64,000 nt of DNA. It comes from Nitrospirota bacterium (GTDB lineage Bacteria > Nitrospirota > UBA9217). Below are positions 1,488 through 52,731 of the stretch, one piece after another. The stretch is taken from assembly GCA_963741205.1 (NCBI GenBank), contig CAVUHW010000010.1, positions 64,001-128,000 on the forward strand. The letters are read 5' to 3'. The position numbers and the translations under genes are program-made. Every line of letters starts with the position of its first letter. Positions within the stretch are counted from its first letter, which is position 1. Under the pieces are notes generated by a model. It saw only the letters and a program-made list of their open reading frames with translations. It was not told the DNA's origin and did no database searches.

Positions 1488-2135
1488 ATGGGCAACAAGA
1501 TCTTTGCCAACCTTCCCTTCGAAAAGCTCAATAAAAAGCTTGAGAGTAAGACTGCTGTTTCCACCCCCCCTCCCGTTCGCCAAAAGAAAAAAGAAGAGTA
1601 TACCGATGAAGAACTGTTCGGGCGGGAGATGGTTGATGTCCTCGTGATCGAGGAATTTCGTTCCCTTGCCTGCGCACCTCGGCAGCGAAAGACGAAAACA
1701 GAACCGGTGCCGCGCGATCCCGAGGAAGAGGCGTTCCAGGTCCTCTGCGAAATCACGGCGGGAGAGCGCCCGATCCATCTGCCGGACACCCAGGAATACG
1801 TCGAGTGGATCCACCCTCAATTTCGCGATGATATCATTCAGAGCCTGCACGAAGGGAAGTTTGCGGTCCAGGCCTTCCTCGATCTGCACGGCTGCACCAT
1901 CCCCGAAGCAGAAGAAGAACTCGATGAATTCATCAAGGACGCGCTCAAAAAAAGCCTGCGCTGCGTCAAGGTCATTCATGGGCGCGGTCTTCGTTCCGTC
2001 AAGGGCGCCCGGCTAAAGTACGCCGTCGTGGCAAGGCTTTCCGGCCATTTTCGCAAGGACATCATCGCCTATGTGACCGCGCGCCAGTGCGACGGCGGCC
2101 TTGGGGCGCTGTACGTTCTCTTGAGTAAGAAGTAA
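1488..2135 (+). CDS. Smr/MutS2 domain protein
   Basis: LDLHG, VIHGRG and DGGLGALYVLL Smr motifs. Confidence 0.9.
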   Translation: MGNKIFANLPFEKLNKKLESKTAVSTPPPVRQKKKEEYTDEELFGREMVDVLVIEEFRSLACAPRQRKTKTEPVPRDPEEEAFQVLCEITAGERPIHLPDTQEYVEWIHPQFRDDIIQSLHEGKFAVQAFLDLHGCTIPEAEEELDEFIKDALKKSLRCVKVIHGRGLRSVKGARLKYAVVARLSGHFRKDIIAYVTARQCDGGLGALYVLLSKK

Positions 2136-2226
2136 CCATGGCAGGGCGTCGAGTCTTGCATCAGGGGCGAAAGGCTCGTTATGCTTTACGAGAACAGCAA
2201 GTTTAACAATTTCCCCTTTATGACCT

Positions 2227-2865
2227 ATGCCGGGCATACAAACCTTTGACAAGCATGTGAACGAGTACGAGCAGTGGTTCGTCGACCACCCGCTCGCGTA
2301 TGTGTCCGAGCTTCACGCGGTCCGCGAACTGCTGCCGAACAGCGGCAGCGGGATCGAGATCGGCGTCGGAACCGGCAGGTTTGCGGCGCCCCTCGGGATC
2401 AAAAGAGGGATAGAGCCTTCAAGGCCCATGGCTGAGCTTGCGCGAAAGAAGGGGATCGAGGTCACATCCGGCGTCGCCGAGAAGCTTCCGTTCACAGACG
2501 GGGAATTCGATTTCGCGCTCATGGTGACCACGGTCTGCTTTCTCGACGACATGGACCTGGCATTCCGCGAAGCCCGTCGGGTGCTCAGGCCCGGCGGCCC
2601 GTTCATCATCGGGTTCATCGACCGGGAGAGCCCCCTCGGCAGGGAGTACCTGCAGCGCAAGGACAAAAGCGCGTTTTACAAGGACGCGACCTTCTACTCC
2701 GTAAACGAGATCGTGGAGCATCTCGCAAAGGCGGGTTTCGTTGATTTTGCCTTTCGCCAGACGCTCTTCGGAAATCCAGGCGATATGGAGAAGGCTGATC
2801 CCGTGAAAGAGGGGCACGGAGAAGGGTCTTTCGTCGCGGTGAGGGGAGTCAAAGGAACGCGGTGA
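2227..2865 (+). CDS. Class I SAM-dependent methyltransferase
   Basis: EIGVGTG motif I, LPFTDGEFD, RVLRPGG. Confidence 0.9.
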   Translation: MPGIQTFDKHVNEYEQWFVDHPLAYVSELHAVRELLPNSGSGIEIGVGTGRFAAPLGIKRGIEPSRPMAELARKKGIEVTSGVAEKLPFTDGEFDFALMVTTVCFLDDMDLAFREARRVLRPGGPFIIGFIDRESPLGREYLQRKDKSAFYKDATFYSVNEIVEHLAKAGFVDFAFRQTLFGNPGDMEKADPVKEGHGEGSFVAVRGVKGTR

Positions 2866-2869
2866 CAGA

Positions 2870-2898
2870 TTTACAAGAAGGCCAATTTTTGATACACT
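2870..2898 (+). promoter_or_regulatory. Candidate sigma70 promoter
   Basis: TTTACA-N17-TACACT with TG extension, upstream of the hairpin leader and small ORF. Confidence 0.45.
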
Positions 2899-2996
2899 CG
2901 TCGCGTCGATTCGTTATCTGGTTGGTAAGGCAGGTTGGGAAGAGGTACGCTCCAGCATGCCTACCGTGCAATTAAACATTAGGGAGGCAAGCAATA

Positions 2997-3095
2997 ATGA
3001 ACATTCTTTTTACCATCACAGCGGTGCTGGCGGCGGTTTACTGCTTCGCCGCTGTCGGCTACTACTACGGGTTCAAGAACTGGTCACCTATGTGA
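2997..3095 (+). CDS. Small 32-aa membrane peptide (not in ORF track)
   Basis: MNILFTITAVLAAVYCFAAVGYYYGFKNWSPM; GGGAGG RBS upstream; one hydrophobic helix. Confidence 0.6.
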   Translation: MNILFTITAVLAAVYCFAAVGYYYGFKNWSPM

Positions 3096-3262
3096 GGACC
3101 TCGCAAATCGCCGGCGGCGCCGGCGAACGGCATACGATGGCTCCCGACCAAGCAAAAAAGGGAAGGGAGATCGAACGGGAAATTTCTTAGGTCCGGAGGT
3201 TAGAGGGATCAGAGGGCCATCTATTGCCTTTTGAACTTCCTGTCAATCATAAGCGAGAAAAT

Positions 3263-3877
3263 ATGAACCTTACTCGTATTTCTAAGAACGATGCCCGGTA
3301 TCCTCCTGCGTTAGGTCATTATCTCGGCAATTCCGCCCCTGGAGAGGTTGCCGCTCTGGGCAACCTGGAAATCCTGAATAACAAAAAGACTGCTCTCTTC
3401 TGCTCCTCTAAGTGTCCCTGCGATCTTATCATCAAAACATCCGACTTGACGAAGAAGTGGCGCGATGAGGGGGTCACGGTGATCAGCGGATTTCACTCGC
3501 CGGTGGAGCAGGAGTGTCTGACTGTGCTTCTTCAGGGAAGGCAGCCGGTCATTCTCTGCCCGGCCCGGAGCATCGAGGGGATGAGGGTAAAGAAGGGACA
3601 GTTGAAGCCGCTTGAAGCGGGGCGATTATTGATACTGTCTCCTTTTCCGCAAAAGGAACGGCGGATGACTGCCGGCCTGGCCCGCGCGAGAAACCTCTTT
3701 GTCGCTGCGTTAGCTGACGAGATTTTCGTTTCCCATGCCTCGCGGGGCGGAAAGATAGAGCAATTCTGCCGTGAAATTGTCCCTTGGCGCAAGCCCGTAA
3801 CGACGCTTGTGAGTGATTCAAATAATAACCTCCTGGAACTCGGCGCACGTTGTGTGAAGCCGGACATGGCCGCGTAG
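3263..3877 (+). CDS. DprA/SMF-like (SLOG-fold) protein, short form
   Basis: YPPAL..GNLEIL, VISGFHS and ARNLFVAALAD motifs. Confidence 0.75.
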   Translation: MNLTRISKNDARYPPALGHYLGNSAPGEVAALGNLEILNNKKTALFCSSKCPCDLIIKTSDLTKKWRDEGVTVISGFHSPVEQECLTVLLQGRQPVILCPARSIEGMRVKKGQLKPLEAGRLLILSPFPQKERRMTAGLARARNLFVAALADEIFVSHASRGGKIEQFCREIVPWRKPVTTLVSDSNNNLLELGARCVKPDMAA

Positions 3878-4850: not shown

Positions 4851-5819
4851 ATGCGAACCGGTCCCGACTATATACAGTTTTACCCAACGCTGCGGTGCGA
4901 CCGGTCCTGCGACTTTTGCTTCAACCGGTCTATGCCCTTCATGGAGGACATGGCCCTTCCAGATTTCATGAAGATGCTGGAAGTCCTCCGGCGGACTTCG
5001 GTGAAGACCCTCGATATCATCGGCGGCGAACCCACGATGCATCCCGACATCCTTCTGTTTGTCAGGGAGGCCGCAGCGAAGGGGCTTTCCGTCAACATCA
5101 GCACGAACGGCTCCAACCTCGCGGCTCTCGCCGAGATCATGGAGATAGGCAGGGCGGTGACGGTCGGTATTTCGGTCAACGACCGTGAAACACTGAAACA
5201 GGTCCGAAACTTCATTCAAAAGCACCGGCCCGTTGTCAAGACGGTTTACAGTCCCGGAATGGCTCTCGGAATGATCGAGGAGATCCTCTCGCTGGGGCCG
5301 AAAAGGTTCTATCTGATATACCGGGATGTACTGGATCCTCATGAACTTCAAGCAGCCGCGCCTTTTTATCAGTATAAATCGAGCGTGGAGGAGCGCTTCG
5401 ATCCGCGTCAGGTCGGAATGGTCTCCTGCTCGGGCTTTCTCCCTGACGAAGAGAATTATCCGGAATTGGCGAGCGTTCGATGTCCCGCCGGCACCACGAA
5501 ACTTGGAATAATGCCGGACGGATCGGTGTATCCCTGCAATCTCTTTTTCGGGAACAGGGAGTTTCTGCTGGGCAACATTCTGTCCGACTCCTTCGAAGGC
5601 ATCTGGAATCACCGGGTGCTTGCATTTTTTCGAGCTGCTTCCCGGAACGCCTGTCCTGTGAAGTCCTGCGAGCTCCATGACCGTTGCCATGGCGGCTGCC
5701 CGGCCCAGGCGCTGGTCCTGTCCGGAGACTTGGCTGCTTCCGATCCGCGGTGCTCCCCGATCGCAGGCCGCGGTTTTCAGAAAGACCGGCCTTCGCCTCA
5801 TACCTCCATGAGATCCTGA
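4851..5819 (+). CDS. Radical SAM / SPASM domain protein
   Basis: CDRSCDFC, GGEP and STNG; C-terminal CPAG..DGSVYPC..C..C..CHGGC SPASM cysteines. Confidence 0.9.
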   Translation: MRTGPDYIQFYPTLRCDRSCDFCFNRSMPFMEDMALPDFMKMLEVLRRTSVKTLDIIGGEPTMHPDILLFVREAAAKGLSVNISTNGSNLAALAEIMEIGRAVTVGISVNDRETLKQVRNFIQKHRPVVKTVYSPGMALGMIEEILSLGPKRFYLIYRDVLDPHELQAAAPFYQYKSSVEERFDPRQVGMVSCSGFLPDEENYPELASVRCPAGTTKLGIMPDGSVYPCNLFFGNREFLLGNILSDSFEGIWNHRVLAFFRAASRNACPVKSCELHDRCHGGCPAQALVLSGDLAASDPRCSPIAGRGFQKDRPSPHTSMRS

Positions 5820-12781: not shown

Positions 12782-13124
12782 GGCGTCAGTAACGCTGCAT
12801 ACAATCCGTATAGAACCTTATGAAGAGAGGGAGAGGAGAGAACAATGAAGCCATAACTTCACCGGCTTGGCATAGTTTGGGAGCCAGGCTGGCTTGAAAG
12901 TATTGCGAAGTACTACTGGAATATCGCAGTCTTATCAATCTAACGCAGCCGCATAGTTATAGATATTGTCGAGGACCGTGATGGCGCCAAAGAACAACAG
13001 ATTACATTCGTAACTTTCATCGATTCCTGCATCCTGTACGTGTTAAATCCCACTCCAAATGGAGAGCAGGTCCTTCCAGCCCACTAAAAAGCCTCCTTTA
13101 TGGAGGCTCATTGATTGGATGCTT

Positions 13125-13963: not shown

Positions 13964-14033
13964 TGAAACTCCCGTGATAATCATTCTGTATCTGTTGACG
14001 TTGCGCTTATCCGTAAAACCCACACTTCATGTC
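13964..14033 (+). repeat. Island repeat unit; 5' exon of intron A
   Basis: TGAAAC-TCCCGTGATAA-TCATTCTGTA-TCTGTTGA...ACTTCATGTC; joins TAAC of the 20579 unit once the intron is removed. Confidence 0.6.
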
Positions 14034-14355
14034 GTCGCGCCAGGTCAAGCCTGGGAAAGGTGGTGGACCAGAAGCCGAAACCTTTCGTCGTGATTCTGTA
14101 GGTAATCAATCCTACCTGGTAAAGCCTGGTCAGCAGCCAGAAGCGAGTCTTGCATGCGCCTAGGTGACTATGTGTGTGAAGCGTAGACAGCTACTGCAAA
14201 AGCCGTGTGATTGAGCCCCGAAATAGCCTCGTGGGAGCTTTCGCCCTCGACATAGCGGGAGCAGCATCGATCGTGCAGTATTGACCTTGCACGACCGATC
14301 CTACCGGGGTCAGAGAGCAGGGCATATGCAGAAGAGGATCACCCAGGAACCTGGG

Positions 14356-16291
14356 GAAAGCGCCGGGATAAACCGGCATAGAGTAGGGAATGAAAGAGTC
14401 CTACGTGAAAGGATGAGCTGATCCATCACGGCCCCGAGTCATGCGCGGGCGGTCGCGAGGCTGCACGTGAAGCGTTGACAGGGGAAGCATAGGCCAGCCA
14501 ATGAGCTCCGAAATCACCCCTTCGGGGTGCCGACCACGTCCCAGGAACGGGAAGGCAACATGGATAACGGCGATAAACAGCCAGTCGTAGTCCGGCCCCG
14601 CGGAGTCTGAGACCCTGTGCATGTGCTTACACTCTATGTTCGAGAACCGGGAGAGCTCAGCAGTTCCTGCCGTTAAATCACATGGCGGCAGGACGGCAAG
14701 GGAAGGCCAGTGGCCGTAATCCTTGCATGCACGCTGCTGAGCAGTCTGACATCGGCGTACTACCGAAGAAGGGGCCGAACAAAATGGTGTGCTCCCATGC
14801 CATGGCGGAGGTTCTGGAGGGAAGGCTGATGACCAAGGGGAAATTCTGAAGAGTCGTCTGCGACCTGTACGCGGAGACAGGAGGAAGCATTGAACGGACT
14901 TGACAGGATACGTGAGGCAGCGGTAAGGGACAAGAAACTTCGGTTCACCAATTTGATGCATCATATCACGGATGAAATGCTCCGAGATGCCTACTCTGCG
15001 CTCAAGCGCAACGCGGCATGCCGGAGTAGACGATATGACATGGCATGAGTATGGTGAGCGCCTGGAGAGCCGGATAGCGGATCTCCATGGCCGTGTGCAG
15101 AGTGGCAGGTATCCGGGCGAAGCCCTCGAAACGGGTTTGGATACCGAAACCGGACGGTCGTCAACGGCCGATCGGCATTGCCGTGCTGGAAGATAAGATA
15201 CGTTGAACAGGCGGTGGTATGGGTACTCAATCAGATCTATGAGCAGGACTTCCTCGGTTTCAGCTACGGATTTCGACCTGAACGCAGCCAACATAACGCG
15301 TTGGATGCAATCTGGGTCGGCATCAAGCAACGGAAGGTAAAATGGGTGCTGGATGCCGACATCAAGAGCTTTTTCGACACGATAAATCATGCGTGGCTGA
15401 TGAAGTTCCTAGAGCATCGCATCGCAGACCCTCGGATGCTCCGCCTGATCCGGAAGTGGCTCAGAGCCGGGGTATCAGAGGATGGCAAGTGGTCAAGAAC
15501 AGAAGTGGGCACGCCGCAAGGGTCGGTGATATCGCCTTTGCTCAGCAACATCTACCTGCATTATGTTCTTGACGAGTGGGTACAATCTTGGCGAAAGAAC
15601 GAGGCGCACGGTGAAATGATCATCGTGCGCTACGCGGATGACTTCGTCATGGGTTTTCAGCACCTGCATGAAGCGAAACGATTTCTTGAGGAAATGAAGG
15701 AGCGATTTGCCCAATACGGCCTGGAAATCCATAGTGAAAAGACCCGACTCATCGAGTTCGGACGATTTGCGGAATCAAATCGTACTGAGCGAGGAGAGAA
15801 AAAGCCTGAAACATTTGACTTTCTTGGGTTCACGCACATTTGCAGCCGAACCCTCAAGGGCAATCATTTCACGATTCATCGTAAGACAATCGCCAAGCGT
15901 CTTCGGGCAAAGCTCAAAGAAGTGAGGGAAGAGGTCATACGCAGACGGCATGAGCCAGTACCGGTACTTGGTAAATGGCTTCGTTCAGTCGTGCAAGGTC
16001 ACCTCAACTACTTTGCGGTGCCCGGCAACACAACGGCAATTAAGGCGTTCCGCAGGGAAATCAACAAGGCATGGCTATACGCGTTGAGGCAACGCAGCCA
16101 GAAGTCCAGTTATCTACCGTGGGACCGAATCAAACTCTTAATTGCGACGTGGATACCTACAGCCATAATACTGCACCCGTACCCAAGCCAGAGGCTTCGC
16201 GTGAACTACCCGAGGTAAGAGCCGTGTGAAGTAATACTTCTCGCACGGATCCGTGCGGGGGGCGTCTGGCAACGGACGTCCCTACCGCGAT
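14356..16291 (+). mobile_element. Group II intron B nested in domain I of intron A
   Basis: Splits A's GGAACCTGGG|AGGTC motif; EBS1 CCCAGG (14540-14545) complementary to CCTGGG (14350-14355); D5 GAGCCGTGTGAA..CACGGATC; ends CTACCGCGAT. Confidence 0.9.
14829..16218 (+). CDS. Group II intron RT/maturase of intron B (several 5' frameshifts, no En domain)
   Basis: FSYGFRP, DADIKSFFDTI, GTPQGS.ISP and VRYADDF; maturase X domain. Confidence 0.88.
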
Positions 16292-16562
16292 AGGTCTTGT
16301 TACTCCGTTTCTAAATGCCGGTGGGGATGACGGAACGAATAACTCCAGGCCTCAAGCGTCTGCGCAGAGATGTTCGAGGAGGTGCGTAATGGCACGAAAC
16401 AAAACGATCAGCGCGAGAAACGGTATCGCCAACTGAAGGAAACGAAAGGCGGCGAGATGGGAAGCAAGACGTCGTAGCGCCTTCATAGTACCGATGAGGC
16501 AGGGGAACGAATCCAATCGGACCCTGCGGAGGTAAGGGGGGCGTCATGTTGTAGAACCGTTG

Positions 16563-17093
16563 ATGGGAAAGACAGAGGATGCGATGGAATCCGGAAATAC
16601 AGTCTACACGAAACAGCAACGGATAGCAGAACTCGCGAGGATTCACCCTGATGTAAGTTTCACGTCTCTCGCCCACCACATTGATTTAGTGTGGCTCTAT
16701 GAAGCATTCGGTCGAACGCGGAAGGACGGAGCGACGGGCATAGACAACGTGACAGCAGAGGAGTACGAGCAAGAGTTAAACACGAATCTGCGATCACTGT
16801 TGGAACGCGCCAAATCGGGGAAGTACTATGCGCCACCGGTACTACGGGCGCATATCCCGAAAGACCCGGCAAAGAAGGAAACCCGTCCTATCGGTATACC
16901 GACGTTCGAGGATAAGGTGCTTCAGAGGGCCTGGCAAATGGTGCTGGAGCCACTATATGAACAGGAATTTCTGGACTGCTCATACGGGTTCCGGACAGGG
17001 CGTTCCGCCCACGACGCGTTGCAATCGTTGTGGAAGCAGATGATGGATATAGGCGGATGCTGGATCATCGACCTCGATATTCGGAAGTTTTTC
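16563..17093 (+). CDS. RT/maturase of intron A, part 1 (RT0 to RT3)
   Basis: GATGIDN, RPIGIPTFEDK, CSYGFR and DLDIRKFF, then interrupted by GTGCG. Confidence 0.88.
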
Positions 17094-17749
17094 GTGCGCC
17101 AGGGTAAGCCCGGCGCTTTCAGCGGGTGCAATTCCCGCCCCGGCAAGGGGAATGAGCCGCCTCACCGGGAATCGAGTCTTGGGCTCATGAAGGCAACGAC
17201 ATGAGTTAAGCGTAGACAGAGCGATGTCCAGGCCGTAACGCAAGTGAAGCGATAGAGCCTCGTGATACATCCGGAGGCCGACAGGGTCGAAAACCTGGAA
17301 GGCTACAGTAGGCGACGAAAAAGGGCGATGGTCGTTGGAGACTCCGGCGGGGTCTGAGAGCACGGCATGGGCAGAAACGGAAGCGTCATGGAACCTGGGA
17401 GATCCACCGCCGTCTCGGTCTGGCGTACAGACCGAGTATGTCTACCGAAAGGACCATCCTGAGGGAGAGAAACGCGACGGTGGAAGTCGGACCGCTGATA
17501 GTACTCGGAGTGCGGGAAAGCCGCATACAGGGGGAAGCGGCGGGGCAGGTTGAGTTGCTGGTCCGGGGAAACATTACCTACACTCAGAGGTAGGAGCACA
17601 ATGTCTACACAACCGGATCAGATCGATGGGTATGACGTTCACCGAACGAGTGCAACCTGGGGAGCCCGTTGCGGGAAATTCGCACGGCGGGTTCTGCGAG
17701 GGGGGACAGGCACAAGAGTACAATACTCAAGGCCTGTCCCTACCCCACC
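17094..17749 (+). mobile_element. ORF-less group II intron C
   Basis: GTGCGCC start; near-identical to intron D RNA; D4 reduced to a remnant (MSTQPDQI); D5 GAGCCCGTTGCGGGAAA; ends CCCACC. Confidence 0.9.
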
Positions 17750-19676
17750 GTGCGCCAGGGTAAGCCCGGCGCTTTCAGCGGGTGCAATTCCCGCCCCGGC
17801 AAGGGGAATGAGCCGCCTCACCGGGAATCGAGTCTTGGGCTCATGAAGGCAACGACATGAGTTAAGCGTAGACAGAGCGATGTCCAGGCCGTAACGCAAG
17901 TGAAGCGATAGAGCCTCGTGATACATCCGGAGGCCGACAGGGTCGAAAACCTGGAAGGCTACAGTAGGCGACCGTAACAGGCGATGGTCGTTGGAGACTC
18001 CGGCGGGGTCTGAGAGCACGGCATGGGCAGAAATGGAAGCGTCATGGAACCTGGGAGATCCATCGCCGTCTCGGTCTGGTTGTCACAGACCGAGTATATC
18101 TACCGAAAGGACCATCCTGAGGGAGATAAACGCGACGGTGGAAGTCGGACCCGCTGATAGTACTCGGAGTGCGGGAAAGCCGCATACAGGGGGAAGCAGT
18201 GGGGCAGGTTGAGTTGCTGGTCCAGGGAAACATTCCCTTCACGCAGAGGTAGGAACCGAATGTCCACACAACTGGATCAGATCAAGGGGAAGGCAAAGTC
18301 GGACCCGAAGCTACGCTTCACATCACTGGCGCACCTGCTCACTCCAGCGTTTCTTAGGGAGACATGGAAACAGATGAACCGGCGTGGGGCGAGCGGAATC
18401 GATGGCGAGACGACGAAGGAGTTTGGGCAAGACCTGGACGCACGGGTTCAATCTCTGAGCGAACGCTTGAAGCAAGGGGCCTACAAGGCTCCACCGGTAC
18501 GCCGAGTGGAAATCCCCAAAGGACCTGGCAGGGAAGGGACAAGACCGCTCGGGATTCCGACGGTCGAAGACCGTCTGCTGCAAAGAGCGGTAGCTCGGAT
18601 ATTGGAAGCGGTGTTCGAGGCGGATTTCTTGGACTGCTCATATGGATTTCGGCCGGGGCGCAATCCCCACGATGCCCTGCGGACATTGCGCACGATCATC
18701 GTCACGAAGAAGGTAGGACACTTGTTCGAAGCTGATATCCGGGGATACTTCAACCACATCCAGCATGAATGGCTGCAAAAGATGGTTGCTCATCGAATTG
18801 CGGACCCGGTCATCCTGCGCCTGATTGGCAAATGGCTGAAAGCGGGCTACATGATGGGAGGAGTCGTTACGCGAACCGAGGAAGGATCGCCACAAGGCGG
18901 GCCGATCAGCCCGATCTTGGCTAACATCTACCTGCACTACGTGCTTGATCTCTGGTTTGAAAAGAAGGTCAAGCCGATGTGCCAGGGTGAGGCGTATCTG
19001 ACGAGATTTGCGGATGATTTTGTGGTGAACTTTCAATATGGCAGAGATGCGGAAGGGTTCAGGAACGAGCCTGACGGATCGATTCGAGAAATTCGGGCTG
19101 GAATTGGCGGAAGAAAAGACGCGGCTGCTGCGCTTCGGACGATTCGTACGTGCGGACCTCGCAAAGACCGGCGATAAGCCGGATACGTTTGACTTTCTTG
19201 GCTTCAAGCATGTCTGTGGTATAGACCAAGGTGGGAAGTTTGCCTTGGTGCGGATTCCGTGCGTCAAAAGCTGCCGAAAGTTCTTGGCCAAGACCAAGGA
19301 ATGGCTCAAGGGGCATATACATTGGAAGCGGCGTGACCAGCAAAGTCAGTTGAAGATGATGCTGCACGGCTTCTACCAATACTTTGGACTGCATCACTGC
19401 AAGCCGAAACTCGACATGGTACGCAGCGCAGTACAGCTCCAATGGATTCGGACGCTACGGAGAAAGAGCCAACGTCACCGACTATACTGGTGCTACCTTA
19501 ATAGCCGAGACTGGTTCAAATTACCGTATGCGGTATCAACACGCCACGCGACGGTTTGACTTTCATTCATCCATTGAGTGCAATCTGGGGAGCCCGTTGC
19601 GGGAAAGCCGCACGGCGGGTTCTGCGAGGGGGGACAGGCACAAGAGGACAACACTCAAGGTCTGTCTCTACCCACC
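17750..19676 (+). mobile_element. Group II intron D, in tandem directly after C
   Basis: GTGCGCC start, full RT ORF, D5 at ~19590, ends CCCACC; A's ORF resumes afterwards. Confidence 0.9.
18260..19559 (+). CDS. RT/maturase of intron D (frameshift near 19070)
   Basis: GASGIDG, RPLGIPTVEDR, DIRGYFNHI, GSPQGGPISP and RFADDF. Confidence 0.88.
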
Positions 19677-20503
19677 ATACGATGGTCCATAAACACATCA
19701 GGGAGATACTCAAGAGGCGGGTGAGTGACGGAGTAATAACGAGACTCATAGATAAGTGGTTGAAGGCCGGTGTATGGGAGGCAGGAAACATCAGTTACCC
19801 GGAAAAGGGTACTCCTCAAGGCGGCGTGATATCCCCCATGCTGAGTAATATTTATCTTCATGAGGTACTGGACCTGTGGTTTGAGAAGGAAGTAAAACCA
19901 CGCCTCCGCGGCAAAGCGTTTCTGATTCGGTATGCCGATGATGCTGTGTTGGGATTTGCAACCGAAGACGATGCCCGGAGAGTAATGGAAGTGCTTCCGA
20001 AGCGGTTTGCCCGATATGGCTTGACGATCCACCCGGAGAAGACCCGTGTGGTGAGGTTCGTAAAGCCGGAAGACATCAACTCGGGGGGCCACAGCCAGGA
20101 CAAGGATAACACGTTCAACTTTCTAGGATTCACTCACTACTGGGCAAAATCCCGTAAAGGTACAGCGGTGATCAAGCGAAGTACCGAGAAGAGCCGGTTC
20201 ATGCGAGCGCTTATGAAGATTAAGGAGTGGTGCAGAACCAATCGGCACAACCCACTGAAGGAGCAGCATAAGACGCTGAACCAGAAACTTCGAGGCCACT
20301 ACGCCTATTACGGGATCAGAGGCAACAGCCAGGCATTGGGGCACTTCTACCACAAGGTGAGACGGCTCTGGCGCAAATGGCTACAGCGAAGGTCGTGCGA
20401 TGGTAGTATCCCGTGGGATAACTTCGCACTACTTGAAAAGGTCTATCCACTTGCGCCAGCGAGAATCGTTCACTCCGCATACTTACGCAAAGCTACAGCA
20501 TGA
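19677..20503 (+). CDS. RT/maturase of intron A, part 2 (RT3 to X domain)
   Basis: TMVH..., GTPQGGVISP, IRYADDA, FNFLGF and GHYAYY; continues DIRKFF(D)T from part 1. Confidence 0.88.
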
Positions 20504-20578
20504 AGAACCGAATGCGTTAATCGCGCACGTTCGGGTCTGTGGGGGGCTGGGGCAGGTGACTGCCCTGGCCTACCTGGC

Positions 20579-20654
20579 TAACATTCAGTGCACTGATCAT
20601 CCTGAAACGAACGTTCCTAGCCTCTCGTAAAAACGTGAACTTCCTGTCGTAACT
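20579..20654 (+). repeat. Island repeat unit; 3' exon of intron A
   Basis: TAAC-A-TTCAG-N13-CTGAA...AACGTGAACTTCCTGTCGTAAC. Confidence 0.7.
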
Positions 20655-21520
20655 GGTACCCTTCATCCTCATCATCTCACAAGAAGGATCTCTTCCTCCC
20701 GATGATATTCTGCATTTCAAGATCCTCAACTTCAGCGTACCCCTAAATGTTGTCAGGAAAAAAGAAGCTAATAATCAGGGATTCCATGATTGACCAAATA
20801 CAATATTTCCGTCATATTTAATAAAAACACAATAACAGCCAATACAGTATCACAGTAGAACTTATGATGTCTTACATGAAAGTTGCGGAACGGTGCAATC
20901 GCACCCTGGCGTTCATGCTGTTAATCGCGACCCGCACGCTCAGTTTGACCATGTCGCCTGCGTTAGTCGACAGCGACAAGCGCATCGTGAGAGTCATGAC
21001 CCAGAACATGGATGCGGGAACAGATCTGCTGTTCTTTTTTGCCTCTCCTTAGAACCTCAGTTGCGCAAAGGAGTGTACGTAAAATTAAGTCGAAACAAAA
21101 AAAATCTGCATTCCATCAGCTTCCCGTCAGGCCTCAGTAGTATAAGCATGTCATACGCACCAAGCGATGGAAAACACGAATTGTATTGGTGATTGCATAC
21201 CGAGGAAAGAAGGGAGGTGGCGAAGAGATCGATAAGAACAGAGGCAACACGCAAGAGGCAGCAAGGATTTTCGGGAGAATGGTCTTTCGGTCATCGATTG
21301 AAGAAAAATGTGGAATTGATATGGATGTTACATTTTTATTGAAGGAGGGCATGTAACATGAAAGCAACATTCGGCAAGAGATGGGCATTTGTGGTTTTTT
21401 GATGGTTTTTGCGTTACTGGCACCATGCTGGACGTCGGCGGAAACGAAATGCCAGGGGCAAACCAGCATTGGGAAATTCGATCGGCATCAGATCAGCGGT
21501 TTGCAGCAGGGGTATGGATT

Positions 21521-23782: not shown

Positions 23783-23976
23783 CAATAATTATGTTCACAT
23801 TCTTTGGAAAACAACCATTTTAATAGAATCCGTCTGCGCCATAGCGAAAGGAGACAGCGTTGTGCGTGTCAGCAGTTTATGATAAAAAAAATTAATAAAA
23901 ATGGGCGACACCTTTCCCACGAAGTTGAAGGCCTCAACAACTTCCTCCTACATTCAGTTATGGTATAAAGAGATTA

Positions 23977-24122
23977 AGACAGGCAGGAGAACTTACTACT
24001 TCCTGGGTCCTTGAACCCTTGCTACAGTCTGTTCCCTGCCTCCCTTAACCATGATAAGTTGATTGGGCCAACGAGCCCTGGTAAAGATGGAGGATTGGTC
24101 GGGAGGCAGTTCCTGCCTATCT
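23977..24122 (+). ncRNA. Putative IS110 bridge RNA
   Basis: Closing stem AGACAGGCAGGA/TCCTGCCTATCT; two large internal loops each capped by a hairpin; stem CTGCCTCCC/GGGAGGCAG; TGnTATAAA upstream. Confidence 0.7.
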
Positions 24123-24148
24123 AAATTTTAGCACGGAGGAGGGGATTT

Positions 24149-25205
24149 ATGGAAAGCCTAATCGTTGGCGTCGATGTTTCCAAGGAGTCCTTTTCTACGG
24201 CCGGCCTTGACGGCAAAGGGACGCGTTGTTTCTCTGAAGAATACACCATGGACAGTGATGGGTTTTCGAAGTTCCTGGCCATGATAATAGCACAACGGCC
24301 GGATGTCTCCCATGTCACTGTCGGCATGGAGTCAACTGGCATCTACCACCTCAATCTCTTTTCTTATCTCACAGCACAAGGCATCCATGCCGTGGTCATT
24401 AATCCGCTGTTGATCGCGAACTTTGCCAAACTGTCACTCCGGAAGACCAAGACCGACAAAAAAGATGCCATGACGATCGCCCAGTTCCTGCTGGCACACT
24501 TGGACAAGATCTCACAGATGTCAATCAGCCAGGACATGCAGGATATGCGCGATCTCGCCCGGGAGCGAGAGTCCTTGAGCCATTTGATTTCCGCGACTAA
24601 GACCGAGATCAAGGGGGTGTTGCAAACGACCTTTCCTGAGCTTGAGCGCCTTTGCAATGTCTTTACGGGCATCATGCTTGCCTTTTTGAAGGAGTTTCCC
24701 TCCGCTCGCTTGATCAATATGGCTAAGCCGCAGGCAATAGCAAACGCCATGGAACCACGCAGTGCAGGGAGCAGGATATCTACCTTTACTGCTGACGATG
24801 TAATCAAGCTGGCCAAAAATTCGGTTGGGATGGTTAGCCCGGCCAAAGAAACCATCCTGCGGGGCAAAATATCGACGCTGCTCCATCTGGAAGATCGTCG
24901 GGACGAATTGACGGCCATGCTCACGGATTACTGCAACTCCCTGATGGTGGAAGACCTGGCAATAGTAACATCCGTGAAAGGCATCAGCAGCGGGACCGGG
25001 ACCACTTTCCTGTCCGAGATAGGGAGCATCGAGAACTACGGCACGCACAAGAACCTGATTGCATACACAGGGGTTGATCCAACGGTGTATCAATCAGGCA
25101 AGTATCAGGGGGCAAGTAAGATCTCGAAGAGAGGAAATAAGCATCTTAGGCGAGTGCTATGGCTTATGACGGCGAGTGTGATCATGCATAACAAAAACTT
25201 CCGAG
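24149..25205 (+). CDS. IS110 transposase/recombinase (C-terminus truncated)
   Basis: VGVDVSK, MESTG, KTDKKDA and YQSG..ISKRGN motifs. Confidence 0.92.
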
Positions 25206-26417: not shown

Positions 26418-26605
26418 CTCGGTGTCCACTTTTTCGGGGGAAGATCAAGGTGAAACTCACAGTCCCGATGAGTCAATATACTCTTCCCACTTCCGATTTG
26501 TCATCTTTGGGGAGCCATGCCAGACTCGGACATATTGCGTAGTACGACCGATATTTCGCGCTTTACCAATCGTGTTTAGGGCGCCGAAGAACAACACATT
26601 CCATT

Positions 26606-26690
26606 TGTAACTTTCGTCGAGTCCTACATCCTGTAATAGTCGGGATTCCAAGAATTCCTCGCAACAATCAATAGTACATGTCGAACTTCT
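26606..26690 (+). repeat. Island repeat unit
   Basis: TGTAAC-TTTCG..CATCCTGTA..ATTCC..AACAATCAATAGT-ACATGTCGAAC; shares AACAATCAATAGT with the 47886 copy. Confidence 0.55.
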
Positions 26691-27280
26691 CATTATTGCG
26701 CGTCGTTCCAGTTGTTACCTTCGTGTACCTCCATCCTGTCCGCCGCAAATGTGATACGATAACACAAAGGGCATGATACAAGTCGTTCAGCAGCTTGGTA
26801 GAATAGATTCATGAGAGGACCCGTCACGGCATGATTGCGGAGACGCACCCTGTTAAACCGGGAGGTAAACAGCCATGTCGGCCATGCCCCTATTGCCTCT
26901 CGAGTGTGCCACTCAAGGCAACCCGTTGTTCCCAATGCACATCGGAATTAAAGGCGGTGTGAAAAAGTATGTGCAGCAGTTTCGCAGAAACTAATGAATG
27001 TGATCGCAACAGTGAGAAGAACAAGACATGAAAAGACTGGCGAATTTTATTTAGAGTTCAAGGGATTCATACTATTCGTCGAAACTCGCATGATTGTACA
27101 TGCTCACGACAGGATCAGGATTTGCTTGATGTGAAGAATATCGCTTGAATCATGCGGTGCTAGGTCCTTCCTGTACTTCGCGTGAGTTTACTTTCTGGAA
27201 ATTACAGGCTTTTCTAAGAATTGTTGCAGAGGTTAGGATCATATGCCGGGACAAATAAGACCGGCCGAGGACAGCATTTG

Positions 27281-30269
27281 ATGAAGCTATCTTTCTCACC
27301 GGCGATCATAAAAAAGGTCTTCAAGATACTCGCTCTCTTTCTGGCGGTCATCGCGGTTACGGGATTTCTCATTCTTCCCGCTGTGCTCAGACCCGTTCTT
27401 GAGAAGAAAATATCCGAGGCAATCCATCGCCCGGTCGCTATCCGTGCGGTATACATCAATCCTTTCACGCTGGCCTTCGCGCTACGGGGGGTAACGATCA
27501 GCCAGCGGGACTCCTCCGAGGTCATGCTGTCCTTCGACGAGTTCTACGTGAACGTGCAGTCTTTGTCCGTGGTCAAAGGCGGGCTTATCGTCAGCAGCAT
27601 ACGCCTGGTCAAACCGTACGTGAACGTTACGAGAAACAGGGACCTCTCCTACAATTTTAGCGACCTGCTGACGACCGGAACGACGCCGACCAAAGGGGAA
27701 AAACCGAAAGAGCCCCTCAAATTCTCGCTCAATAATATTGAAGTGGTAAACGGCAGCGCCGACTTTTTCGATGCCCCCAGGAACACCCGCCATACCGTGC
27801 GGGATGTGAATATTGCGGTGCCGTTCGTTTCAGATCTTCCCTATGACCTCTCATCCTATGTCCAGCCCGCCTTCGAGGCAACGGTCAACGGTACCGCTAT
27901 CGCGCTTAAGGGGAAGACACTGCCGTTCAACGAATCGCTCGAGACAACGCTCGACATCAACTGGAAGGGGCTGGATATCCCGCACTACCTGACGTACAGC
28001 CCGGTGCCGCTCAAAATCCAGCTCCTGTCAGGTACACTCGATGTGCAGGCGACGATCTCGTTCCGAAAGTTTAAGGACCGGCCGCCCACGGTCTCTGTCA
28101 AAGGGACCCTTGGTCTCAACAACATTCGGCTGGCAGCCACGGGGACGAAGCGGTTCCTGGAATTCCCGTCGTTCTCAATCTCCTTCCTCCCCTCCGATCT
28201 GATGAAGAAGGAAGTTCATCTATCCGAAGTGAGCCTGCGCGCGCCGAAACTGTATGTGGAGCGCGACCGCGGCGGCGAACTGGTCATCATGAAGGCGATC
28301 CTGGAGCAGCTGGGAGTGAGCCAGGACAAGCAGGAACCTGCTCCCGAGAAAGCGGGCCCCATGCCGATCATTGATATCGACGCGTTCTCGATCCAGGACG
28401 GCATGTTGCAGTTCCTTGACTGGCAGCCCGTTCCTGCTGCGGAGGACGGGGAAGGTGCCACTCAAAAGCCGGCTAAAGTGCTGATCGAAGCCATCGAACT
28501 AAAAGCCAGCTCTCTTTCGACGCGCAAAGACAGCAAGGGAAAACTGGAGCTGTCGGTTCATGTCAACAGGAAGGGCACGGTGCGGACATCGGGTTCGCTC
28601 GGACTGGTTCCTCTCGATCTAGAAACGGCGGTGAACATCAACGGGATCGAACTCGCGCCGTTCCAGCCCTATATGGCGCAAAAAGCGGATGCGTTTGTGG
28701 GCCGATGGCAGGCTTTCCACGGACGGTATCGCACGCGTCTGGGCCGGGGAGGCCGGAGTCCTTTCCGTGACATACCGCGGCAGCGCATCGATCAGCCGCC
28801 TTGCCCTGCGCGACAGCAGCAACAACGACCTTCTGACCTGGAAGCTGTTGCAGTTCTCCGGGGTCGAGATGGGGTCCAACCCGCTCTCCCTGAAGATAAA
28901 GACGGTCGCACTCAGCGACTTCGCTGCGGGCATCGTTGTCGAAGAGGACGGCACGCTGAACTTTCAAAGGATTGCGAAGGCAGAGCCGGCTGAGGGTGAA
29001 ACAGCGCAGGAAGAAACAAAACAGGGACCTTCTCCTTCAGCCGAGGTGAAGAAGGCTCCTGCACAACAGGGAACCCCTCCGGACATTGCCATCGGGCAGG
29101 TGACACTTACGAACGGAAGCGTCAACTTCACGGACAGGCACATAAAACCGATGTACACGGCAAACCTTGTTGAGATCGACGGCAAGGTGTCCGGCCTGTC
29201 CTCGAGAAAGGACATGATGGCGGACGTGAACCTGCGCTGTTCCCTGGACCGGTACGCGCCGCTTGCGATAACGGGAAAGATCCATCCCTTCGGGAACGAT
29301 CTGTCTGCCGACATAAGGGCGGATTGCAAGGACATCGAGCTAAGCCTGCTAACGCCTTATTCGGGGACGTACATCGGCCACGCCATCGAGAAGGGCAAGC
29401 TTTCCTTCAGCCTGGAATATCACATCGTGAATAAGAAGCTTGAGGCAAAGAATGACATCTTTATCGATCAGCTGACGCTGGGAGAAAAGATCGACAGTCC
29501 GAAGGCGACCAATTTGCCGGTCGGCCTTGCCATATCGCTGCTCAAGGACAGGAAGGGCGAGATCAGGCTCGACATCCCGGTGACCGGAGAGATCGACAAT
29601 CCCGAGTTCCGCGTCTGGAAGGTGGTCCTGCAGGTGCTGAAAAACCTGCTCGTGAAGGTCGCTACCTCGCCGTTCGCTCTACTCGCCAGCATGATGGGAG
29701 GGGAAGAGCTGGGATATGTGGAGTTCGACTATGGCGCGGTCGAGGTCACAGAACAGAACCTGAAAAAACTGGACAGTTTGGTTGATGCCCTCTATAACAG
29801 ACCGTCGTTGAAACTGGAGATAGCGGGATATGTTGATCCGACTAACGACCGCGAGGGGCTGAGAGCCGGGCGCAAGAAGAACATGATCCTTGCCGAGAAA
29901 ATGAAGGATCTGTCCCGAAGGAACGAGCAACCGGTCTCGCCGGAATCGGTCCAGATCAGCGCCGCTGAATACCCGATCTATCTGAAGCAGGCGTACAAAA
30001 GCGGAAAATTCTCCAAGCCGAGGAACATGCTCGGCATTGCTAAAGACATTCCCGATGCGGAGATGGAAAAACTGCTCCTGGGGAGCATTCAGATAAATGA
30101 CGACGATCTGCGGCAACTTGCTTTAGAGAGGGCGCGTACGATCAGGGACGTGATCCTGAAGTCTCAAAAGATCGAGCCTGAACGCATATTCCTTATTGAG
30201 CCAAAGTCATTTCTGCCGGAACAAAAGGATAAGCTCAAGAACAGCCGAGTAGACTTCTCGCTTAAATGA
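27281..30269 (+). CDS. DUF748 (AsmA-like) envelope protein, frameshift near 28690
   Basis: N-terminal TM anchor, repeated DUF748 beta segments, LAISLLKD..IRLDIPV.G, C-terminal OmpA-like region. Confidence 0.85.
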
Positions 30270-38251: not shown

Positions 38252-39091
38252 CTATTTCCCGTGCAACACATCCATCCAGCGGATGGCTTCCGAGTCATCG
38301 ACCTTGCCCAGATATACCTGCGTGGTTTTCAAATCGTGATGCCTCAGAAGCACCTTGGAGATTATTTCCAGGGGCACGCCGTTTCGACTTGCATACGTCG
38401 CCGAGTGTCTCCTTAAATCGTGGGGAGATACCTTCACATTAAACTTCTCGCCGAGCCTTTTGATAAGCGCCCGCACCGTCGTATAACAAACAGGAAACAG
38501 GCGGTCGTCAGGACCGATTTTGTCTTCCGTTATATATTCGGCCAGCCGCTTCGCTATCTGCTCCGGCATGAAGGCTGTTTCGCTTTCTTTCCCTGACTTC
38601 GGCTCCCGAATGAGAAGCTTCCTGTCCGTCACGTCATCTGCTCTGAGCTTAAGCACCTCCCCGATCCTGAGCCCGCAGCGCGCCTGCAGCTCCAGAATCA
38701 ACCTGTCCATGGTAGATGATGTGCTGTAGATCAGCTCATCGACCAGTTCCTTGTCCAGGATCTTTCTTGCCGCCGGCTTCGGGTTCTTGTACTGTTTCAT
38801 CAATAGCGAGTGCGCGCAGGGGTTCTTGATATCCAGGCCGCATTCGTTAATGACGAAGCTGAAGAACGCCTTGGTCTGGGCATACCGTAAGTGACGCGTC
38901 CCTCTGGCGACGCCGGCGGTGAAGGACTCGAGAAATTTGCCGATTTCCTCAACCGTTATCGATTCCACAGCTCGATCCGGGAAAAACGTTTTAAGGCTAT
39001 TGAAGAACAGCTGATACCCCGTGTTCGTGCTTCGTTTGAGCGTCGACAAGTGATGGTTCCTCACAAATTCAATGGCTTCCGGAATATTCAT
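38252..39091 (-). CDS. Tyrosine recombinase (XerC/D-like, 279 aa)
   Basis: GLRIGE (R), K, HDLRR (HxxR) and LRH..LKTTQVY (H, Y) catalytic residues; GGAGG RBS; no IntI-type insertion evident. Confidence 0.92.
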   Translation of the reverse strand: MNIPEAIEFVRNHHLSTLKRSTNTGYQLFFNSLKTFFPDRAVESITVEEIGKFLESFTAGVARGTRHLRYAQTKAFFSFVINECGLDIKNPCAHSLLMKQYKNPKPAARKILDKELVDELIYSTSSTMDRLILELQARCGLRIGEVLKLRADDVTDRKLLIREPKSGKESETAFMPEQIAKRLAEYITEDKIGPDDRLFPVCYTTVRALIKRLGEKFNVKVSPHDLRRHSATYASRNGVPLEIISKVLLRHHDLKTTQVYLGKVDDSEAIRWMDVLHGK

Positions 39092-39879: not shown

Positions 39880-39940
39880 AACTTCGAGGAATAAACGCAG
39901 ATGATGTACTCTGCACTCCAAACTATCATTCGGAGGCCAA

Positions 39941-40201
39941 ATGGGTGCCCACTTCAAACCTCATCTTCGGGACGCAATTTTAAAAGCAGTTGAGAATCAA
40001 CTCGCCAATGATAACCCACCTGAGACAAAGCAAACTTACGATCGCCTGGTACGCGAAGGGTATTCCGAAAACGACGCAAAAATTCTCATCGCAAACGTCG
40101 TTGCTGTCGAAATATTTGAAGTTGTAAATCGACGAGAACCTTTCAATCATCAGAGGTTTGTTAAAGCTTTGAATCGGTTGCCAACTATTCCTGAAGCATA
40201 G
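39941..40201 (+). CDS. Conserved hypothetical protein
   Basis: VENQL..DPPETKQTYDRL..GYS pattern; GGAGG RBS. Confidence 0.75.
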   Translation: MGAHFKPHLRDAILKAVENQLANDNPPETKQTYDRLVREGYSENDAKILIANVVAVEIFEVVNRREPFNHQRFVKALNRLPTIPEA

Positions 40202-40204
40202 ATA

Positions 40205-40268
40205 TTCGAGCTATATTCTGGATCTGTGATTGATGATAGACAGCCGAGCGTTTACTTCAGAGCGTAAC
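40205..40268 (+). repeat. Island repeat unit
   Basis: ATATTCTGGATCTGTGA..ACTTCAGAGCGTAACATTC versus ACTTCATGTC-TAACATTC at the intron A site. Confidence 0.5.
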
Positions 40269-40689
40269 ATTCTACGAGACTTTAGGCACTCATTCGATTC
40301 ATCGTTCAGTGCATGATACTGGTTTTTTTACACCCTTGTCACAACATTGACATTCCATACTTGTTGTCGATGACCACGAGAATGTCGAAGAACGACAAAA
40401 CCATTCAAAATAAAAGATAAATTTGATTCGAAAATGGATGAGAAAATCGAGAAGAAGCGCGCATAAGCGGCACATCCACCCATTGCCGTTAATACGGCAA
40501 ATCCTGAAGAGGGGCCCTCGAGGGGATAAGTAAGTCCTCTATGAATCCTCCGATCTGCAGAATTAAGCAAGGAGAGTAAAACCTGCTGTCTCAAATCGAC
40601 TCACGATTACCGCGATTACTGCGTGTGCCGCTCGCAATACCATCGAGAAAGATGTATTCTGCGCTGCCCTTGTCCCACGTCGCGGTGAT

Positions 40690-42820: not shown

Positions 42821-43465
42821 GACTTTGCACCTCCTCCACTGGTTTCTGGATGAAAAGGGACCACATGACATTGAAACGAGACTGTTCGCTCGTATTGTTC
42901 AAGAATAAGCCGGTCTTGTTTTCTTTCTCGGCAGCCCGGCTGTATTACGTTTTCAAGACGCTCAGTTCCACTTTACCTTTTGCGAATAGTTTGGCATTAT
43001 CGGGGACAACTACATTTAATCACTGGTATGATAAATCGTCAATTTCAAGCTTGCGCAACTATTCACTTTATTACAGATATTATGTCCGGAGAAAAAACAG
43101 AGGGATTAACAGCGGGATTAAACTGAATGATGATAATCAAGATAAACGTTACATGAGTGAGCGGTGCATAAATGTTTTAAACAACGAAAGTAGTATGAAA
43201 GGATTGTGTCGCAGTATAAAAGAGCCCCGTCTGCTACTTTATCGAGACCTGCCAAAGGTTGCCTGACTTCGTCTCCGACCCTATCTCATAGCCAGGCAAT
43301 GACTGTTCACGCTAAGAGTTTATGCTGCCAGAACCAGGATAAACTGGGTGACATTTTCAACCCGAGGTTCGACCCGAAATTCGCATTTTTTTAATCGCGC
43401 TAAGGCGAGAGTTAGTAAGTGGCATTGATGCCGACCGAGAAAAGGCAGTCCGATCTATTCTGGTC

Positions 43466-43543
43466 GAAACGTTCAGTAACGACGTCATCCTGAAGGTGTT
43501 GTTTTTGACTGATACACTGAGATGCATGTTTCCTGTCGAATTT
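43466..43543 (+). repeat. Island repeat unit
   Basis: GAAAC-G-TTCAG-N13-CTGAA-GGTGTTG..TTCCTGTCGAATTT. Confidence 0.7.
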
Positions 43544-43730
43544 CTTGTGAAGGATATTTGTTCGAGTCCACTATGGGGAGCCAGACATTCCCAAAACTGG
43601 ACACGCATCCGCTCATAGCGAGAAGGTGCCAGTTTTATTTTTTCAATATCCGCAGCCCTCGTCGCATGACTTCCCTGTCGTATACCCTGTTGCCGTCGCC
43701 CCTGATTTCATCCGCCAGAACCTTTAGCTT

Positions 43731-44550: not shown

Positions 44551-44626
44551 GATATAAATTCTTTCGATTGCCCTGGATTCGTCTTTTTCGGGGAGCCGTG
44601 CCAGCCTCGAGCATCAATTCCGATTG

Positions 44627-44703
44627 TAAACTTCAGTGCGACTATCATCCTGAAGGTATTGATTAAGCGACTCCTCAAAACTCCAATACTACACTTCGAA
44701 TTT
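44627..44703 (+). repeat. Island repeat unit
   Basis: TAAAC-TTCAG-N13-CTGAA-GGTATTG..CTTCGAATTT; TCGAATTT starts 42 nt after CTGAA, as in the 43466 copy. Confidence 0.7.
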
Positions 44704-44915
44704 ACTACCGACTAACCGTAGAATGCCTGTTCAATAGCGTTGACATATCGCGGCATCAAGCTTATATTTAGTTTCGTCAGATCATATGATTTGTCGGCTC
44801 GAAGGCGAGGTGACATGGATGTTACTCGGGGGCTGAAGCGCTACTGCGCGGCCGCATCAACAGCCTGACCTATGATTTTATGCAGTGATTAAACCAGACT
44901 GGGTGAGCGCTGGAC

Positions 44916-46308: not shown

Positions 46309-46602
46309 ATGGATACCGATGATTTGACAGAAATGGCTTATGCTACTATCTCAATTGCCAACGAAGTCCTTGACGCACTCCGCTTGGAAATTGGCGCTTC
46401 CGCAAAAGATTACTTGTCAGAGGATGATTTTTTGACAGGCACACTTTCAAATCTAAAAGATATTCTCGCTGATCCTGAGAGCTACTTGGATTCGTGGAAT
46501 TACATGGATACAGTAAACTCGAAACGCTTTGCAAAGGGGATTGAGAAAATAATTCGCCTAGTCGAGATAGAGAAGGCTGCCCTGTTCGGGATGAAATGTT
46601 GA
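46309..46602 (+). CDS. Hypothetical protein
   Basis: 97-aa ORF with GAGG RBS; its 3' end runs into a repeat unit. Confidence 0.65.
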   Translation: MDTDDLTEMAYATISIANEVLDALRLEIGASAKDYLSEDDFLTGTLSNLKDILADPESYLDSWNYMDTVNSKRFAKGIEKIIRLVEIEKAALFGMKC

Positions 46603-52722: not shown

Positions 52723-52731
52723 GAATGAAGT

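Follow-up and report, generated by a model that had tools for sequence, protein, structure and literature searches.

A group II intron lineage that has probably settled in an oriented, gene-separating repeat of a Nitrospirota family

The window, i.e. the whole stretch of DNA that was analysed, comprises 64,000 nucleotides (G000:C10:64001-128000) of the MAG G000, which spans 4.27 Mb in 50 contigs and is 84% complete. Rfam places four D1-D4 matches of family RF02005 in the window (14106-14319, 14395-14615, 17129-17362 and 17785-18018) together with one above-threshold D5-D6 match (17660-17748), to which the whole-genome Rfam search adds a second D5-D6 match ending at window position 20578. A large group II intron, designated intron A, holds three other introns, namely intron B and, twice and head-to-tail, intron C. 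Intron A is flanked on both sides by units of a ~95-nt repeat, further units of which occur elsewhere in the window. The features are the following:

13000 to 13053, plus strand: partial repeat unit, start box only (profile match)
13973 to 14034, plus strand: repeat unit U1, variant type, whose end box CACTTCATGTCG provides the 5' exon (profile positions 25-87, 15.3 bits, E 2e-5 on the rejoined sequence, nhmmer)
14029 to 14034, plus strand: IBS1 ATGTCG, complement of EBS1 and final six bases of the 5' exon
14035 to 20578, plus strand: intron A, group II intron without endonuclease domain, 6544 nt, 5' UCGCG ... GC 3'
14106 to 14319, plus strand: D1-D3 of intron A (RF02005, 141.4 bits)
14248 to 14253, plus strand: EBS1 CGACAU, in a 9-nt terminal loop (cmscan alignment)
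14356 to 16291, plus strand: intron B, after D3 of intron A (RF02005, 171.1 bits), with the boundaries GAAAGCG...GAU, reverse-transcriptase frame split
16560 to 17094, plus strand: reverse-transcriptase ORF of intron A, part 1, ending ...DIRKFF plus a G
17095 to 17749, plus strand: intron C, copy 1, an ORF-less derivative (RF02005 124.5 bits, RF00029 45.4 bits), D1-D4 repeated
17751 to 19676, plus strand: intron C, copy 2, full length, reverse-transcriptase frame split
19677 to 20503, plus strand: reverse-transcriptase/maturase ORF of intron A, part 2
20503 to 20578, plus strand: D5-D6 of intron A (RF00029 alignment), AAC where the D5 consensus is AGC
20579 to 20660, plus strand: repeat unit U2, which together with TCG 14032-14034 gives start box, core CATCCTG and end box; the 3' exon starts TA
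26596 to 26696, plus strand: unoccupied repeat unit, with ATGTCGAAC at 26678 in its end box
43455 to 43547, plus strand: unoccupied repeat unit (profile match)
44614 to 44709, plus strand: unoccupied repeat unit (profile match)
46585 to 46676, plus strand: unoccupied repeat unit (profile match)

Intron A carries the ribozyme domains of a group II intron, D1-D4 by RF02005 and D5-D6 by RF00029. Its D5-D6 segment scores 33.2 bits (E 4.7e-5), which is below the gathering score of 40, and covers the whole model up to an end at 20578. The reverse transcriptase/maturase encoded in D4 matches group II reverse transcriptases of the PDB (6me0 at 1.4e-12, 7uim at 3.6e-11, 5g2x and 6ar1), and these matches do not discriminate between classes (IIB TeI4h 1.4e-12 versus IIC 3.6e-11 and 2.1e-8). 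Three full relatives free of introns B and C were found in two other Nitrospirota MAGs, at loci L008, L009 and L010. They share 88-91% identity with intron A over the 5' 320 nt and ~90% in the protein, and the L008 copy is uninterrupted, with 2028 nt and an intact ORF of 461 aa. The L010 copy (G039:C1) is 4284 nt long and contains an insertion at ~1600-3800, the 562-aa ORF of which resembles a large serine recombinase on a by-eye reading of the sequence.

The similarity of intron A to these three ~90%-identical introns extends from 14034 to 20578 plus TA, and all full A-type copies end in ...CCUACCUGGC, followed by TA. The 3' splice site therefore lies at 20578, where the preliminary description of this DNA had placed it, and the ends common to L008, L009 and L010 bear this out. 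At the 5' end, all four full copies (window and L008-L010) read G-UCGCGCC; the base preceding UCGCGCC is G in five copies, C in two (L046, L051) and A in one (L048), copies from the same order included. In L046 the exon ends in AACTAC, against an EBS1 loop of GUAGUU, the C at position -1 being paired with the G at EBS1 position 1. Because the -1 base covaries with EBS1 in this copy, G 14034 is exonic. A model in which intron A starts with G, favoured by homology to the GUGCG of L011, was ruled out by the same covariation. The rejoined flanks of intron A read CTTCATGTCG^TAACATTCAG (the caret marks the insertion point here and below) and not ...ATGTC^TAAC. The rejoined 19-mer is found unoccupied at G000 C5:5065-5083 (19/19), and C41:7359-7393 matches in 31/35 bases. 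By eye, EBS1 takes up loop positions 3-8 in introns A, B and C alike. Three independent lines agree with this boundary, i.e. the empty 19-mer on C5, the position of EBS1 in its loop and the logic of intron C.

Intron A departs from the group II consensus, with UCGCG ... GC instead of 5' GUGYG ... AY 3' and without the AGC triad in D5. In all four full A-type copies D5 reads AAC, and the partner U is changed to G. The canonical relatives L011 and L013 (57-61% protein identity) have GUGCG, an AC or AU end, and AGC. The non-consensus A-type copies nonetheless possess retargeted EBS1 loops, and one of them has an intact ORF. The A-type lineage is mobile despite its first base U, its GC 3' end and its AAC triad, which bears on the question of which ribozyme positions, at the boundaries and in D5, are truly required.

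Near-identical intron A contigs in public metagenome runs, from soil and other sources, confirm that introns B and C are removable units; segments that no contig covers do not count in this comparison. Contigs from three runs (three studies) join 14355 directly to 16292, and the empty intron B site CCTGGG^AGGTC is present in L009 and L010. Contigs of two runs (two studies) join 17094 to 19677, and this joint skips TG..CC. In L008 and L010, where the reverse-transcriptase gene is uninterrupted, the intron C site reads TTTTTCGATACG, and intron C is therefore inserted between G and A. A lone extra G (17750) separates the tandem copies of C in the FFD motif; simple repeated insertion with a U start does not explain this G. 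As assembled, the reverse-transcriptase frames of both B and C are split. The window copy of intron A was subsequently invaded by B and, twice at one site, by C. Dai and Zimmerly are said to have described, in 2003, nested introns of Methanosarcina acetivorans that home into related intron ORFs. The arrangement in the window is similar in that C interrupts the conserved FFD motif in the reverse-transcriptase gene of intron A, and that B lies within the RNA of intron A. It differs by its bacterial host, by two tandem copies at one site, and by the membership of A, B and C in a single Rfam D1-D4 family.

In each repeat unit the start box, TTCnnGTCGWAACATTCAGCGCG, is followed by the invariant CATCCTG(A/T)A, and ~35 variable bases lead on to the end box, (GCG)CACTTCATGTCGAATTTGTTAA. 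A profile search of G000 (nhmmer) yields 96 matches at E<=1, in arrays that are one-oriented per contig and many of which lie on small contigs; contig C5 has 15 matches, C41 13, C45 10+1, and C9, C14 and C10 seven each. With the sequence-only model R1 the family was found in 28/64 genomes of the order and in 11/14 other genomes of the genus, numbers which are lower bounds, with 63 candidates scored per genome. The repeat is common in one Nitrospirota family. Neighbouring units are separated by one or a few short genes, among them those for glyoxalase, CAP-domain, HU-like, OmpA-like, DUF6064 and radical-SAM proteins, and the longest inter-unit ORF has the orientation of the units in 34/48 intervals. 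On contig C1 of G039 (=G001), a near-complete relative, ~19 listed unit matches between 27,954 and 336,625 (~310 kb) are all on the minus strand, and the three beyond 1.04 Mb are on the plus strand; the orientation of the units may follow the direction of replication.

A consensus fold was absent from 26 units (RNAalifold 0.0), and single-strand DNA folds are weak and inconsistent (-2.8 to -16.7 kcal/mol). No Rfam family was matched at E<=1 in the 19.7-kb array of C41, and a reading of the repeat as a decayed intron relic was dropped on the same search. A protein-coding segment was likewise considered and rejected: translations in both orientations contain recurring peptide words and no consistently open frame. 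The 78-aa antisense ORF at 26460-26693 has no Pfam match. A limited literature search found no description of the repeat.

On the rejoined sequence, U2 matches the profile from position 12 to 95 (43.0 bits, E 5e-14), and its genome-wide nhmmer match has an E of 4e-9; the genome-wide match of U1 is weak (E 0.1). The junction of intron A falls between profile positions 14 and 15 of U2 and between positions 85 and 86 of U1, in the overlap of the end box of one unit with the start box of the next. Comparable head-to-tail overlaps are found unoccupied at C41:7192-7451 and C5:~5000-5098. A precise insertion at the junction of two repeat units, as proposed in the preliminary description, is confirmed by this layout, except that the 5' boundary was one base off (14035, not 14034). 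The unoccupied similar sites named there (ATGTCGAAC at 26678, CTGTCG near 20645 and 43534) exist, and all three are unit end boxes. The 9-mer ATGTCTAAC of the junction as drawn there is not enriched; with one mismatch allowed, 6 were found versus 6.4 expected.

An EBS1 of GACAT at 14249-14253 had been said to pair with ATGTC. This is right, and the pairing extends to CGACAT at 14248-14253. Wherever EBS1 and IBS1 are both available (6/6 copies) they are fully complementary, and up to five of the six positions show compensatory changes. The pairs (IBS1/EBS1) are ATGTCG/CGACAU in the window, ATCCTG/CAGGAU in L008, ATTCTG/CAGAAU in L009, AATCTG/CAGAUU in L010, AACTAC/GUAGUU in L046 and TTCCTG/CAGGAA in L060. 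The 3' exon starts with TA in 9/9 distinct sites. For EBS2, a manual comparison of the variable D1 segment with exon positions -7 to -14 gave no consistent pairing, and the sequences upstream of 8 A-type sites share no common hairpin (60-nt DNA folds of -1.1 to -5.2 kcal/mol). Recognition is by base pairing, in contrast to the hairpin recognition of IIC-attC introns. The 8-mer ATGTCGTA occurs 101 times in G000, so that pairing alone cannot account for the choice of site. The 10-mer TCATGTCGTA occurs 9 times in 4.27 Mb, and 3 of these occurrences are on the array contigs C5 and C41 in array orientation. Intron A is single-copy in G000, though perfect ATGTCG^TA targets in units remain empty.

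The flanks of the whole A-type lineage were compared with the repeat at 13 distinct sites, namely the window, L008, L009, L010, L046, L048, L049, L051, L060, L059=L062, L061, L063 and L064=L065; beside these stand the 5'-truncated L047, with EBS1 only, and in addition the contig X1. The metagenome loci are short and have no assigned host. About six of the 13 sites lie in the repeat, at two similar words, CATCCTG^TA and CATGTCG^TA, and the rest do not detectably do so. In a register-locked scoring, each 3' exon was compared with the 32 bases that follow the core in 64 units of G000. Four of the 8 other distinct sites with a 3' exon match the sequence after CATCCTG in exact register. Their scores out of 32 (L008 20, L059/L062 18, L061 20, L063 24) each exceed all 76 shifted registers; random 32-mers reached at least 18 in 3/300 and at least 20 in 0/300 cases, in a control without the TA start, which is worth up to 2 matches. 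L009 (16), L010 (12), L060 (14) and L064 (15) score no better than shifted registers. L063 is identical to C20:356798-356816 in 19/19 bases, with the same 8-nt offset from CATCCTG in the G000 unit, and the L008 junction lies between profile positions 40 and 41, directly after CATCCTG (9.8 bits, E 0.001). With the G000 profile, the junction scores only for the window and, weakly, for L008, the profile being mostly too weak on foreign flanks to decide. The 5' exons minus the core word are not significant (best 14/25, with at least 14 in 11/300 random 25-mers). Repeat similarity was not significant at L009, L010, L064/L065 and L060 (3' exon), nor at L046, L048, L049 and L051 (5' exon only).

Co-oriented units, clear or probable, are present in the same contigs as the introns of L062 (E 2e-6), L061 (E 0.0014), L047 (E 0.0023) and L051 (E 0.0044). 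Nine of nine matches at E<=1 in L059-L065 are on the strand of the intron, and every repeat-profile match near A-type copies shares the direction of the intron. X1, from a soil run, has a copy of intron A that departs from the window by a single letter over 14023-14355. Its upstream sequence reads ...GGATCTGCGCACTTCATGTCG, with CAAATCACGGATCTGCG just before, in a layout of ...GGATCTGCG plus CACTTCATGTCG^intron. This 5' flank is the canonical end-box context of another unit, as in the units of C41 and C9, and not the upstream sequence of the window. Most repeat-borne copies are at CATCCTG^TA, and the window copy is at a different box, ATGTCG^TA.

A comparison of the flanks of homologues with the repeat had been named beforehand as the way to refute a specialisation of intron A on this site. 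The result is divided: 4/8 3' exons and X1 are in the repeat, but other copies have flanks without detectable similarity to it. The proposed specialisation is partly supported. About half of the readable 3' flanks belong to the family; against it, EBS1 changes with the target, and most repeat-borne copies use a different box from that of the window copy.

Intron A could also be a generalist that retargets by mutation of EBS1 and is found in the repeat only through survival in non-coding, gene-poor arrays, without any preference. EBS1 indeed differs at every site, at least 7/13 distinct sites lack significant repeat similarity, and the B-type introns (25 matches in 10/64 genomes) are mostly outside units, with only the copy on C9 in a clear unit. 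We nevertheless consider a lineage without preference unlikely. Units make up ~0.2% of G000 (96 x ~95 nt in 4.27 Mb) versus 6/13 of the A-type sites, four sites share one exact position after CATCCTG, and the IBS1 words are near variants of two conserved words of the repeat. Part of the enrichment could stem from survivorship in non-coding DNA. The B-type intron on C9 is ORF-less, and the halves of its unit score 27.9 and 21.4 bits on either side. B-type sites with CAACCTGAATTCGT directly before the insertion point in L142, L150 and L154 appeared core-like by eye; they are unsupported by the model and were dropped.

We propose that intron A is a retrohoming group II intron and that its lineage has probably settled in a lineage-specific, oriented ~95-nt repeat separating the accessory genes of a Nitrospirota family. 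As the covariation shows, the target is chosen by 6-7-bp pairing of EBS1, in its 9-nt D1 loop, with the last bases of the 5' exon, in addition to the TA that opens the 3' exon. The repeat offers two conserved words that fit the pattern CAT-NNN-G^(T/A)A, i.e. CATCCTG in its centre and CATGTCG in end box and start box. Most relatives, with an EBS1 of CAGGAU or a near variant, sit after CATCCTG, and the window copy, with CGACAU, after CATGTCG in a head-to-tail overlap of two units. We infer that insertions are tolerated and that many further targets are on offer, because the repeat is non-coding, exists in ~100 copies and has one orientation per array. Relatives are found in the same repeat family, and the repeat would therefore be a preferred landing pad of the lineage. 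A lineage which is outside class C by every feature testable here would rely on simple base pairing to colonise an oriented, non-coding repeat of many copies, and would gain in it a safe niche where each genome offers about a hundred targets.

The repeat has further occupants. An IS110-family element splits units at CATCC^TTTTATG (C41:13753-15368 and C5:5098-6713), and a second IS110-family element starts right after CATCC on C45:1161-2416, with a copy in the window at 23943-25197. The repeat may be a programmed target of IS110-family elements. In addition, a group II intron on contig C14 of G000 (39883-41850; 5' GUGUG, RF02005 53 bits) is located ~120 nt upstream of a unit start box, with a 5' exon similar to what precedes the window unit at 44614.

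The preliminary description went further and took the unit junction for a site-specific recombination site that intron A recognises as such, in the way that IIC-attC introns recognise folded attC. Several observations are in line with this claim. The overlapping units form an imperfect palindrome, GCGCACTTCATG-TCGTAA-CATTCAGCGCGC, with arms matching at 9/12 positions on a by-eye reading and with intron A in the middle of the 6-nt centre; duplicated gene segments shared by arrays end inside units; an integron-type integrase is encoded on another contig (367.5 bits, cut-off 265), and a tyrosine recombinase in the window at 38255-39091. However, the 26 units share no consensus fold and fold weakly as single strands, 8 A-type sites lack an upstream hairpin, most relatives are at another box, the duplications between arrays break off close to the CATCCTG core and away from the proposed centre, and no recombinase gene is consistently found beside arrays. 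The claim in its full form appears improbable. Nor does the landing of intron A support a function of the repeat as a recombination site, as had been argued.

The identity of the repeat with integron attC sites, and of intron A with a group IIC-attC intron, was suggested by the one-oriented arrays of short accessory genes and by the presence of an integron integrase gene in the genome, and was dropped after the folds and the orientation count. The repeat is conserved in sequence but has no palindromic fold, and EBS1 is 6-7 nt long with no stem-loop upstream. The intron is co-oriented with the units, as are the longest inter-unit ORFs in 34/48 intervals, versus the opposed orientation of IIC-attC introns in the accessible part of their description (PMC3001079). 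The integrase match (TIGR02249, 367.5 bits) is at C18:131988-132923; this contig of the fragmented assembly shows no repeat-profile match, and the neighbouring ORFs are not array-like. We regard the attC identity as hardly credible.

A further possibility, which we consider rather doubtful, is that the ~95-nt repeat is the attachment site of an undescribed, hairpin-free cassette system on which the intron and the IS110 parasites have specialised in parallel. End box and start box would flank each gene block, and the loss of a block would leave TTCATG-TCGWAA-CATTCAG. Near-palindromic boxes of this kind occur at the insertion site of intron A as well as at C41:7357 and C5:5065. The parallel specialists would be a non-IIC intron lineage with first base U and IS110-family elements cutting the CATCC^TG core. 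A search for cassette boundaries in other genomes of the genus gave just radical-SAM coding similarity, which is uninformative on boundaries. IS1111-attC elements are IS110-family elements in the attC niche. The sharing of a niche with IS110-family elements is a likeness of the repeat of intron A to attC, and if the cassette system is real, the two parasites on the repeat would be the counterparts of the IIC-attC introns and IS1111-attC elements found on integrons.

With regard to known systems, the available part of a 2015 review distinguishes homing sites, terminators and attC as the three target habits of group II introns in bacteria (PMC4424553). IIC-attC introns occupy the bottom strand of attC and run against the cassette genes, as far as the accessible text of their description goes (PMC3001079). 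As is the case for S.ma.I2 and related IIC-attC introns in the same partial sources (PMC3001079, PMC4424553), the lineage of intron A is recurrent in a short, gene-separating array repeat. According to those portions, however, IIC-attC introns read a folded stem-loop and are opposed to the cassettes, on the bottom strand, whereas intron A reads conserved words of the repeat by 6-7-bp EBS1 pairing without a hairpin and is co-oriented with the repeat. Its boundaries and D5 depart from the consensus, unlike those of IIC-attC introns. Neither an upstream stem-loop nor a bottom-strand, opposed orientation is present at intron A. Intron A fails every testable IIC-attC feature, and the analogy is ecological only.

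RmInt1 in ISRm2011-2 is an example of ordinary group II retrohoming. Intron A resembles ordinary retrohoming introns, as outlined in the accessible sections of the review (PMC4424553), in that the target is set by pairing of intron RNA with DNA and that the protein lacks an endonuclease domain. It is unlike them, within the same limits of the source, in that it homes into a non-coding repeat of many copies rather than into one gene or insertion sequence; the elements shown for target recognition are EBS1 and TA only.

The nearest published case compared is UHB.I2, a IIB1/CL1 intron from a soda-lake metagenome cassette array, which is located directly after a canonical attC (PMC7923331, available part). 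In that part of the report it is co-oriented with the cassettes, has the boundaries 5' UUGCG..GU 3', and has exon flanks that are poorly conserved among its relatives except for the first two bases of the 3' exon (PMC7923331). Both UHB.I2, so far as described there, and intron A are non-IIC introns with non-consensus boundaries, placed in an array and in array orientation, and in both the relatives share little exon sequence beyond those two bases. The two differ in that UHB.I2 follows an attC, whereas the repeat at intron A is not attC-like, and in that several independent A-type copies share the position in the repeat.

Two other observations concern other parts of the window. G+C content rises from ~0.45-0.63 to 0.71-0.79 over the last 12 kb (~52000-64000), and this jump could be a chimeric MAG-contig join or a foreign block; a group II intron on contig C12 is likewise in very GC-rich DNA. 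Finally, a DUF748/AsmA-like gene at 27221-30269 is present as two overlapping frames (27221-28993 and 28689-30269), and this split is a frameshift or assembly error.
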